Shown piece by piece: positions 22,432-22,795 of a stretch of 64,000 nt of DNA. Location: positions 352,001 through 416,000 of the forward strand of contig CAWFQK010000002.1 in the NCBI GenBank assembly GCA_963817955.1, written 5' to 3'. Below the pieces are notes generated by a model. The model saw nothing but the letters and a program-made list of their open reading frames with translations. It ran no database searches and had not been told where the DNA came from. This stretch comes from an uncultured Gemmatimonadaceae bacterium (GTDB lineage Bacteria > Gemmatimonadota > Gemmatimonadetes > Gemmatimonadales > Gemmatimonadaceae). Numbering within the stretch: position 1 is the stretch's first letter; each line of letters begins with the position of its first letter. Made by a program: the position numbers and the translations under genes.

Positions 22432-22459
22432 CGGTTGGGTCTCCTGTGAAATGAAGGGG

Positions 22460-22502
22460 AAAAACAAAAAAGCCCGGTCCTCTCAGAGAGAGAGGACCGG
22501 GC
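22460..22502 (-). terminator. Attenuator terminator immediately upstream of metY
   Basis: 13-bp perfect stem GCCCGGTCCTCTC/GAGAGGACCGGGC, 5-nt loop, then U6-G-U5 on the minus strand. Confidence 0.88.
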
Positions 22503-22527
22503 CGGTATGCGAGCTCGTGTTGGCTCG

Positions 22528-22629
22528 CTAGTCGCCTGCGCGCGTGCGCGGCACCCGTCCGTCTCTCCCATAAGGAGGAACGCACATGAGGCACATACAC
22601 ATGGGCATCGCGAGCGGCGTGAGGCGCAT
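22528..22629 (-). CDS. Met/Cys-rich leader peptide MRLTPLAMPMCMCLMCVPPYGRDGRVPRTRAGD (33 aa)
   Basis: Hand-translated. Codons 8-16 contain 4 Met and 3 Cys. The 3' part is complementary to the terminator 5' arm. Confidence 0.78.
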   Translation of the reverse strand: MRLTPLAMPMCMCLMCVPPYGRDGRVPRTRAGD

Positions 22630-22659
22630 CGTCAGATCAAAGTCGAGAAGAACGGATAC

Positions 22660-22691
22660 AAAAAAACCCCGGACGGGAAGGCCGCCGGGGC
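22660..22691 (-). terminator. Intrinsic terminator (riboswitch expression platform)
   Basis: CCCCGGCGG-CCTTC-CCGTCCGGGG followed by U7, starting ~8 nt after the aptamer. Confidence 0.85.
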
Positions 22692-22698
22692 ATTCGCG

Positions 22699-22745
22699 TT
22701 TTAGCATTTGTTTTACGTGGCTGCAATAGGCGGCAAATGACCACG
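22699..22745 (-). ncRNA. SAM-II (SAM-alpha)-like riboswitch aptamer
   Basis: CGUGG-UCAUUUG-CCGCCUA-UUGCAG-CCACG-UAAAA-CAAAUGCUAAAA: CGUGG/CCACG stem, AUUU, UUGC and terminal GCUAAA hallmarks; upstream of met genes. Confidence 0.82.
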
Positions 22746-22765
22746 AATCCTTCGATTGTGTGCCC

Positions 22766-22795
22766 AGTATACGACACCGGGTGCAAAGATGTCAA
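22766..22795 (-). promoter_or_regulatory. Sigma70 promoter for the met leader: TTGACA-N18-TATACT
   Basis: Near-consensus -35/-10 about 20 nt upstream of the aptamer. Confidence 0.8.

Follow-up and report, generated by a model that had tools for sequence, protein, structure and literature searches.

Two candidate termination checkpoints, a SAM-II-like riboswitch and a methionine/cysteine leader-peptide attenuator, in the metY-metX leader of an uncultured Gemmatimonadaceae bacterium

Introduction

Why would a bacterium place two terminators, one behind the other, between a promoter and the methionine genes metY and metX? The question is raised by the metY-metX leader in a 64,000-nucleotide (nt) stretch of DNA from an uncultured Gemmatimonadaceae bacterium (GenBank assembly GCA_963817955.1, contig CAWFQK010000002.1, positions 352,001 to 416,000 of the forward strand). 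This whole stretch is referred to here as the window, and its positions are counted from its first letter; the leader and its two genes lie on the minus strand. Comparison with related sequences leads us to think it probable that metY-metX is controlled by two independent premature-termination checkpoints in series. The one would be a riboswitch of the SAM-II class, responding to S-adenosylmethionine (SAM), and the other a leader-peptide attenuator mediated by ribosomes that read methionine (Met) and cysteine (Cys) codons in a short open reading frame (sORF).

An initial annotation of this DNA had listed, in order, a promoter, a SAM-II-like aptamer, a terminator, a 33-codon open reading frame (ORF), a second terminator and metY-metX. 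All of these elements are present where they had been placed, within a base or two, and the observation itself is confirmed. The annotation also proposed that the two RNA sensors act in series, and this interpretation is supported by the leaders of related bacteria. The metY protein of the window was used to rank metY loci, and the best 80 of at least 595 loci, 467,816 nt in total, were kept as relatives. The top six of the 80 (L001 to L006), the best matches of the window protein, are Gemmatimonadota records with 66-79% identity to it.

Layout of the leader

The promoter-like site, TTGACA-N18-TATACT at 22795-22766, resembles the sigma-70 consensus, with agreement at 11 of 12 positions. No other such site occurs in 22000-23200, where shuffled sequences give a mean of 0.2, and transcription would start about 7 nt 3' of its second hexamer. 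Two terminator-like sites were found in the same region; the promoter-like site is 5' of both, and the scan finds none between the aptamer module and the sORF module. Because the lone promoter-like site sits upstream of both modules, we infer that one transcript spans them.

The genes that this transcript would reach are metY and a metX-like gene. The metY gene (21106-22431) encodes a 441-residue protein of the O-acetylhomoserine sulfhydrylase family, which scores 476.5 bits with PF01053 and 641.6 bits with TIGR01326 (cut-off 495); its ribosome binding sequence, AGGAG, is at 22445-22441. The start of the metX-like gene (20111-21109) and the stop of metY share 4 nt. Its product is a putative homoserine O-acyltransferase of 332 residues with an alpha/beta hydrolase fold; TIGR01392 is the best match, at 275 bits, below the cut-off of 500.

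The SAM-II-like aptamer and terminator 1

The aptamer occupies 22756-22691, and its P1 helix pairs 22745-22740 with 22721-22716. A search with the Rfam SAM_alpha model (RF00521) had been suggested as a check. In the 451 nt of 22380-22830, searched at expectation (E) values up to 10, the full model (positions 1-79) matches 22754-22684, a span that includes the 22745-22699 originally assigned to the aptamer. The check thus gave a match with an E value of 8.3e-6, although at 33.1 bits it is short of the gathering score of 36. A second model, RF01726, gives 30.7 bits (gathering score 44). The other matches in this region (sX11, BcKCsr2, anti-hemB, Gl_U1, microRNAs, DnaX and SorX) fall well short of their cut-offs. 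As they are all anchored on terminator 2 as well, they were set aside as chance.

The conserved letters of SAM-II are present, namely the CGUGGU...GCCACG helix, AUUUG, UUGCAGCC, AAACAA and GCUAAAA, so that a P1 helix encloses the conserved loop and is followed by an A-rich 3' tail ending in GCUAAA. The loop AUUUG and the tail CAAAU are complementary by eye; the structure line of RF00521 shows P1 only. The aptamer lies in the 5' leader of metY-metX, with a terminator and seven T residues right after it.

Two of the related leaders carry orthologs of the aptamer. The one in L004 scores 52.7 bits with RF00521, which is above the cut-off, and the one in L001 scores 30.8 bits. The three aptamers align position for position, with a mean column identity of 82%, and P1 has a compensatory pair, CGTGG/CCACG in the window and CGAGG/CCTCG in L001 (U-A to A-U). 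Membership in SAM-II is borderline by the curated score, but the orthologs speak for it. A covariance model built from these three aptamers (R1) was run over the window and the 80 loci. A fourth aptamer came to light in this way, in L028 (Pyrinomonadaceae), with 27.4 bits and an E value of 8e-4; this one has 32.1 bits with RF00521, also below the cut-off. L057 resembles SAM-II by eye and gives 14.5 bits and E 1.4 with R1; it has no Rfam match at E up to 1.

Terminator 1 (22690-22660) is presumably the expression platform of the aptamer. Its stem, with one bulge, spans 22690-22667 and is followed by seven T at 22666-22660, as the earlier placement at 22691-22660 had it. It is the minimum free energy (MFE) hairpin, and the terminator scan reports merely an inner 5-pair version of its stem. 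A G+C-rich hairpin and then a T run follow each of the three aptamers. When the 3' arm is left out of the fold, the 5' arm of terminator 1 has a predicted partner in a segment of the aptamer in all three aptamer-bearing leaders. For example, the aptamer loop GCCGCC pairs with GGCGGC of the 5' arm in the window, and GCCGCG pairs with CGCGGC in L001, while L004 employs a different aptamer segment. It is plausible that this predicted pairing is the antiterminator of terminator 1.

The conserved tail of the window aptamer has an ATG at 22707 that is in frame with the sORF and opens a 59-codon frame through terminator 1. It is treated as incidental, since L001 has no ATG there. From terminator 1 to the sORF there are 31 nt in the window and about 190 nt in L004. 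In L001 (2085-2131) and L004 (2000-2110) this spacer is made up of short tandem repeats, with about three copies of units like TCTCTGTTGTT in the former and CGCGAC-rich units in the latter.

The Met/Cys leader sORF

Between the two terminators is the sORF, 33 codons and a TAG at 22629-22528, in agreement with the initial annotation. It encodes MRLTPLAMPMCMCLMCVPPYGRDGRVPRTRAGD. As in known attenuators, end-product codons are clustered: codons 8-16 (22608-22582) read MPMCMCLMC, or four Met and three Cys in nine codons. A six-frame scan of the window finds four nine-residue stretches with at least five Met/Cys and at least one Met, and the leader cluster is the only one of these with more than one Met. 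The other three are Cys-rich (CCRLTMCRC, CVCSCSMRC and ICTSCCCEM, at 1898, 3468 and 3974 on the minus strand) and are within or opposite long ORFs.

A strict scan for nine-codon stretches with at least five Met/Cys and at least two Met, on both strands of all 80 loci, gave nine matches on the metY strand and one on the opposite strand. Of the nine, eight belong to leaders that precede metY operons (L001, L004, L005, L008, L016, L033 and, twice, L060). Met and Cys make up 69 of 339 non-start codons across ten sORFs (the sum of the in-frame ATG and TGY counts of each sORF), compared with 34 of 1959 in five proteins of the window and 3.9% for a random codon of like base composition.

The frame is also telling. 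With start codons excluded, 39 ATG triplets of the ten sORFs are in frame and 3 are out (binomial p about 9e-16 against one third), a test that is partly circular because the frames were chosen for their Met/Cys content. Choice of frame does not explain that all 8 internal ATGs of L004 are in one frame. The TGY triplets, 30 in frame and 29 out, are less telling, since every AUGUG necessarily brings with it a UGU that is out of frame.

Ten of 11 sORFs were taken from an ATG; the one in L060 was taken from a GTG or an internal ATG. By eye, a -10-like hexamer ends 7-9 nt before the sORF ATG in L002 (CACTTT, 2254-2271) and in L033 (TATACT, 2246-2265). These two sORFs could be leaderless, because the hexamer adjoins the ATG; the promoter scan calls no promoter in either leader.

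A P-Y-x-G-like motif follows the Met/Cys cluster in three peptides (VPPYG at 22574-22563 in the window, LPYMG in L001 and IPYEG in L008). The C-rich and G-rich strands of hairpin 1:2, described below, may account for it, or else common descent.

Terminator 2 and its competing strand

A predicted intrinsic terminator separates the sORF from metY. Terminator 2 (22503-22460) has the stem-loop and T tract that the initial annotation had described; the stem has 14 pairs, 10 of them G-C, rather than the 13 base pairs originally counted, and the stem-loop at 22503-22471 is followed by the T tract to 22460. Right after the last Cys codon there is a further hairpin, called hairpin 1:2 (22582-22560), with the pairings CUCCU:GGGAG and CGUU:GACG. 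A strand that begins within it and extends beyond it, region 2 (22569-22549), can pair with the 5' arm of terminator 2 once the 3' arm is absent. Thus, the window has an antiterminator strand beside the regulatory codons that could compete for the 5' arm of the terminator.

The antiterminator duplexes of ten leaders were each compared with 300 dinucleotide shuffles. The duplex of the window has -21.8 kcal/mol, and 7 of 300 shuffles are as good; seven of the ten leaders beat their shuffles in this way, with at most 14 of 300 as good. Region 2 begins 1-16 nt past the last codon of the densest Met/Cys cluster in nine of the ten. The exception is L004, where the gap from the densest cluster is 42 nt and that from the last Met codon is about 9 nt by eye. 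In all ten leaders the stop codon of the sORF is 19-40 nt before the hairpin (about 24 nt in the window).

Folds were also predicted for transcripts that end short of the 3' arm. In these, all seven Gemmatimonadota leaders have region 2 paired with the terminator's 5' arm for at least one stall position. The letters that pair change between lineages and the complementarity is retained. For example, AGAGACGGACGGG... pairs with ...CCCGGUCCUCUC in the window, GGAAGG with CCUUCC in L016, CCCGUGAG... with ...CUCACGG in L033, CUGGAGAGG with CCCCUCCAG in L060 and, by eye, CGAAGGGC with GCCCUUCG in L008. A consensus fold of the window, L001, L003 and L006 retains both hairpin 1:2 and the terminator, with a compensatory change in 7 of 33 pairs. 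The terminator scan also calls the terminators after the sORFs of L002 and L003.

Distribution among the Gemmatimonadota

Each of the six Gemmatimonadota relatives carries an sORF that starts with ATG, is 32-50 codons long, has Met/Cys codons in frame and is succeeded by a strong hairpin. The alignment of related metY leaders that had been called for therefore shows the sORF module in every one of them and orthologs of the aptamer in L001 and L004. The sORF has 32-34 codons in L001, L002, L003, L005 and L006 and 50 in L004. The core of the peptide is AMPMCMCLMC in the window, LMLMCMC in L001, AAMMCC in L002, LMCRISPC in L003, VMCMCMVMATMATTMTMTMT in L004, AMCCRMIPC in L005 and LICRPCPC in L006. 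Outside the Met/Cys cluster the peptides drift while the Met/Cys codons stay, which is the pattern of conservation expected of an attenuator.

The two modules also occur apart. A Rfam search of L001 to L008 at E up to 0.01 found no match in L002, L003, L005, L006 or L007, and in L002, L003 and L006 neither this search nor R1 gave a SAM-II match. The sORF and its hairpin are the sole recognizable control element in these last three leaders, and L003 has a promoter-like site a short way 5' of the sORF. Conversely, the two Acidobacteriota loci L028 (660-790) and L057 (2303-2420), both from Pyrinomonadaceae, have a SAM-II-like aptamer and a terminator and then metY directly, with no Met/Cys sORF in between. 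The occurrence of the sORF without SAM-II and of the aptamer without the sORF implies that these are separate modules that can be combined.

L005 has another element 5' of its sORF (2147-2292), which by eye has the same motifs in loop and tail as the aptamers of L028 and L057, plus an extra hairpin, about 23 nt long, after P1. As a SAM-II candidate it was rejected; RF00521 and RF01726 (171 nt searched) and R1 were all silent at E up to 10.

Related leaders in other phyla

Comparable sORFs with hairpins are present 5' of metY operons in four further records from three other phyla. In L016 (Ignavibacteriaceae, 1744-2245), a promoter-like site is followed by the sORF MKTKNRNITTGKTAMCLCCMMMCMSSRKDAA and a hairpin with six T; next come a SAM-I riboswitch, which has a terminator to itself, and metY. 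The riboswitch, at 1985-2113, scores 72.4 bits (gathering score 44.4). L008 (Ignavibacteria, 1-460) has the sORF MTNFQYSMCPCMCCSIPYEGHMGLNQTRSR, a hairpin, a SAM-I riboswitch at 218-359 (74.5 bits), several ORFs and metY. In both of these Ignavibacteriota leaders the order is the reverse of that in the window, and the riboswitch is of the SAM-I class. L033 (Acidobacteriaceae) has the sORF MKFTSTTSAPTMAMCMRMCSRPVSAWENNRMR and a hairpin, and L060, a metagenome-assembled genome of the Bacteroidota, has the sORF ...MRCMGMMMCMMMARTGLERSRPERR and a hairpin; neither has a riboswitch match at E up to 1.

Five layouts are therefore seen. SAM-II precedes the sORF in the window, L001 and L004; the sORF precedes SAM-I in L016 and L008; the sORF module is alone in L002, L003, L006, L033 and L060; it follows an unclassified structured element in L005; and SAM-II is alone in L028 and, by eye, in L057. 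A tandem layout with two putative sensors, each with its own platform, is present in the window and repeated in L001 and L004. We are slightly inclined to believe that Met/Cys-codon attenuators are an undescribed class that spans at least four phyla (Gemmatimonadota, Ignavibacteriota, Acidobacteriota and Bacteroidota) and controls metY operons. The class would be modular and would have been joined at least twice to SAM riboswitches, of differing class and in opposite order, to make a two-input gate on SAM and on the charging of Met/Cys-tRNA.

One locus has a leader of another kind. L062 (Lachnospiraceae) has a 28-codon sORF at 2314-2400 that ends in MCSRCRCCSVN, about 80 nt upstream of metY, with a ribosome-binding-like sequence GAGAGGA but, on the same strand, no terminator. 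Possibly it is a leader that senses Cys and acts on translation.

Proposed mechanism

We propose that a single transcript from the promoter at 22795-22766 passes two checkpoints before it reaches metY-metX. At the first, bound SAM would lock the loop and tail into the aptamer fold, and terminator 1 would form. Without SAM, the GCCGCC segment of the loop would capture the 5' arm of terminator 1 and transcription would go on.

The second checkpoint would depend on the ribosome. When charged Met-tRNA and Cys-tRNA are plentiful, the ribosome would run through region 2 to the stop codon of the 33-codon sORF; region 2 would be occupied or held in hairpin 1:2, and terminator 2 would therefore form. 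When charged tRNA is scarce, the ribosome would stall at MPMCMCLMC and cover region 1. Region 2 would then be open to pairing with the 5' arm of terminator 2, which would let RNA polymerase enter metY.

As output, metY-metX would be made only if both SAM and Met/Cys charging are low. This AND logic is deduced from the serial arrangement of the two terminators and the lack of a promoter-like site that would separate them, and the binding of ligand, the translation of the sORF, the stalling and the efficiencies of termination are deduced as well. Sensing of both Met and Cys fits the genes under control, because TIGR01326 names both O-acetylhomoserine and O-acetylserine sulfhydrylase activity. 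Enzymes of this family make homocysteine, and the direct sulfhydrylation pathway draws on the same sulfide pool, which fits Cys sensing beside that of Met.

Points against the two-checkpoint model and alternative explanations

Several results weigh against the model just described. Two terminator-like sites in 1.2 kb are not, taken alone, far above what shuffled sequences give (mean 1.0, standard deviation 0.9). The aptamer is below the curated Rfam cut-off, and a scan of the whole window at the gathering threshold reports only tRNA. At 64% G+C an open frame of 33 codons is weak evidence, and none of the 11 sORFs has a Shine-Dalgarno sequence, though metY of the window has its AGGAG. The best nine residues of L003 and L006 (LMCRISPCG and LICRPCPCG) hold just three Met/Cys, with almost no Met. 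A looser scan, for at least four Met/Cys of nine within 600 nt upstream, gives a modest enrichment, with 17 forward matches in 13 loci against 11 reverse matches in 8. Its matches in L038 and L041 were discarded, being inside coding regions; others are in L056, L071 and L073.

The RNA folds are also not entirely favorable. In L004 (46 of 300), L005 (160 of 300) and L006 (129 of 300), the antiterminator duplex does not outdo its shuffles. The simple terminator scan misses the hairpins after the sORFs of L016, L033 and L060, which are seen with RNAfold only, and the T tracts are poor in L005, L008 and L033, the hairpin of L008 having no T run. Full-length MFE folds give the terminator, not the antiterminator, in six of seven leaders even when a ribosome is masked in, the sole exception being L001 masked at the first codon of the cluster. 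Such masked folds were dropped as a test of switching, which they cannot show; the antiterminator is seen in truncated transcripts only. In five of seven truncated folds it forms without any ribosome, and therefore the textbook role of hairpin 1:2 is not cleanly supported. These folds suggest that, for termination, the passage of the ribosome over region 2 may be the main factor and hairpin 1:2 a lesser one.

Finally, Met starvation also limits the charging of the initiator tRNA, and translation of the sORF could stop altogether. Since the antiterminator appears to be the default without a ribosome in most members, the design may stay ON when Met starvation blocks initiation. If true, this default-ON design would account for the ability of a Met attenuator to function in the first place.

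The second module might instead be a structured RNA that binds a ligand or a protein, such as an unrecognized riboswitch or a small RNA (sRNA) ending at terminator 2, with the AUGUG words as RNA motifs and the open frame incidental. AUGUG does recur in the window and in L001, L002, L003, L004 and L005, the nucleotide block GGAGAGACGGAC is kept in the window, L003 and L006, no Shine-Dalgarno sequence is present, and open frames come cheaply at this G+C content. There is also a precedent, in a study of S. meliloti, for riboswitch-terminated leaders that can serve as sRNAs (PMC9373788). However, all that the four phyla share is the in-frame Met/Cys codons, the place of these codons beside the antiterminator strand, and the distance of 19-40 nt from the stop codon to the terminator. 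The bias of ATG triplets to one frame, noted above, also counts against this explanation; L006 has AUUUGU in place of AUGUG and yet retains its Cys codons; and 22629-22460 matches no Rfam family at E up to 10 beyond the chance matches anchored on the terminator. We consider this explanation unlikely. Still less can be said for a functional small peptide rich in Met and Cys, for example one involved in metal or sulfur handling, that is co-transcribed with metY while the hairpin serves as a leaky terminator or a stabilizer. By eye, the peptides of L004 and L060 look like Met-rich metal-binding stretches, and the P-Y-x-G-like motif recurs in the window, L001 and L008. But the peptide is not conserved beyond Met and Cys, the length and composition of the sORF vary widely, and in the close pair L003/L006 most nucleotide differences alter a residue. 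The proline-rich segment can be explained by RNA pairing, because it is encoded by the C-rich strand of hairpin 1:2, and in every case the sORF comes together with a hairpin that can pair, through its 5' arm, with the 3' part of the sORF. A functional peptide is, in our opinion, very improbable.

It is also conceivable that the sORF senses Met/Cys charging and acts mainly through translation, Rho or mRNA decay, with the hairpin secondary and not an intrinsic terminator. The poor T tracts of L005, L008 and L033 would agree with this, and so would published work: the mycobacterial polycysteine sORF that was tested acts on translation and not on transcription termination (bioRxiv 10.1101/834739), and Rho has been proposed for Cys leaders without hairpins (Seliverstov 2005, PMC1262725). 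Against it, the hairpin is G+C-rich and followed by 5-8 T in the window, L003, L006, L004, L016 and L060, and it is 29-80 nt upstream of the metY start, where it leaves the AGGAG uncovered. This variant seems to us quite unlikely, and intrinsic termination governed by the ribosome is the reading of the second module that we prefer.

Neighboring features

A tRNA-Leu(UAG) gene is at 22822-22903 on the minus strand. It shares its strand with the met leader, whose -35 hexamer begins 26 nt downstream of the end of the tRNA gene, and read-through into the leader is possible. Elsewhere in the window there is a gene for Hsp70/DnaK at 15570-18323 on the plus strand. Its longest ORF has 917 residues and the Hsp70 domain begins at residue 274, which suggests that the true start is probably well downstream of the first start codon.

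Significance and comparison with known systems

A Met-codon attenuator would fill an obvious gap in the described specificities of leader peptides, and a working one would show how the need for Met in the initiation of the sensor itself is circumvented. Its pairing with SAM riboswitches would mean that natural RNA logic gates are not solely made of riboswitches and T-boxes, and covariance-model surveys of tandem riboswitches would overlook mixed gates of riboswitch and sORF. The system would also provide a regulatory handle for little-studied phyla and compact parts for synthetic two-input expression control.

A full-text literature search, which lay outside subscription journals and supplements, found no Met-codon leader-peptide attenuator, no report of SAM-II in the Gemmatimonadota and no tandem of a riboswitch and an amino-acid leader peptide for met genes. 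A Met/Cys-codon leader-peptide switch does not seem to have been described so far.

The second module resembles the classical attenuators (trp, his, leu, thr, phe and ilv) in its sORF with end-product codons, its intrinsic terminator and a strand that competes for the 5' arm. It is unlike them in that the regulatory codons are Met and Cys and that there is no Shine-Dalgarno sequence. A 2013 survey gives the specificities His, Leu, Thr and Trp, plus Ile/Val and Phe, and no Met (PMC3766115). The hosts differ as well. An account from 2010 states that leader peptides were known from Proteobacteria and Actinobacteria alone, to which it adds new cases from Firmicutes (PMC2965389), whereas the leaders described here are from Gemmatimonadota, Ignavibacteriota, Acidobacteriota and Bacteroidota.

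Leader peptides with Cys codons have been predicted in Actinobacteria, where a 2005 survey found no terminator hairpin (Seliverstov 2005, PMC1262725), and the mycobacterial Cys sORF acts on translation (Canestrari et al., bioRxiv 10.1101/834739). These leaders also have a Cys-codon sORF 5' of sulfur amino-acid genes, where the charging of Cys-tRNA is sensed by ribosome stalling, and they can work without a Shine-Dalgarno sequence, being leaderless; the sORFs described here have none either. They differ in being runs of Cys only, whereas Met dominates in most of the present members and both a terminator and an antiterminator are present.

The aptamer consensus is identical to that of the SAM-II riboswitches of Alphaproteobacteria, including those of S. 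meliloti metZ and metA (PMC9373788). The host is of another phylum, and the aptamer in the window is below the RF00521 cut-off. In S. meliloti metA, SAM-II is followed by a second terminator for which the authors could predict no sensor (PMC9373788); unlike that one, the second terminator in the window comes with a Met/Cys sORF.

Other leaders combine signals in different ways. The Salmonella mgtA leader has a Mg2+ riboswitch plus mgtL. Like the leader described here, the Salmonella mgtA and mgtCBR leaders have several sensing mechanisms each, with translation of a short ORF altering downstream stem-loops (PMC3641672). Their signals are Mg2+, proline and ATP, their termination is Rho-dependent or otherwise, and their elements overlap instead of forming two modules in series. 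In Xanthomonas, the leader of a met operon integrates SAM and the charging of tRNA-Met, as its SAM-I riboswitch also binds the uncharged initiator tRNA (PMC7270179). This is described as a single riboswitch whose platform binds tRNA-fMet and acts on translation, with neither sORF nor second terminator (PMC7270179).

The initial annotation knew of no described case of its combination. This stands for a tandem of sORF and riboswitch, none having been found for met genes in the search above, but the same two inputs are known from SAM-I/T-box(Met) tandems, which have been catalogued together with the reverse T-box(Met)/SAM-I order (Sherlock et al. 2022, PMC9481103). Both SAM-I/T-box(Met) examples precede metX and metY, and expression is predicted only at low SAM and high uncharged tRNA-Met (PMC9481103). 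That paper lacks the terms 'leader peptide', 'attenuat' and 'uORF'. In those tandems, as here, two sensors share a 5' leader, each with its own platform, and monitor SAM and tRNA-Met charging, and both orders of the sensors occur, as they do among the leaders described above (PMC9481103). The difference is that the charging sensor predicted here is a translated Met/Cys sORF instead of a tRNA-binding T-box, for which 22380-22830 has no match at E up to 10, that the riboswitch of the window is of the SAM-II class, and that Cys is likely an extra input. The component parts are of known kinds; what appears to be new is that the attenuator is specific for Met/Cys, that it is spread over four phyla and that it is paired, as a module, with two classes of SAM riboswitch.

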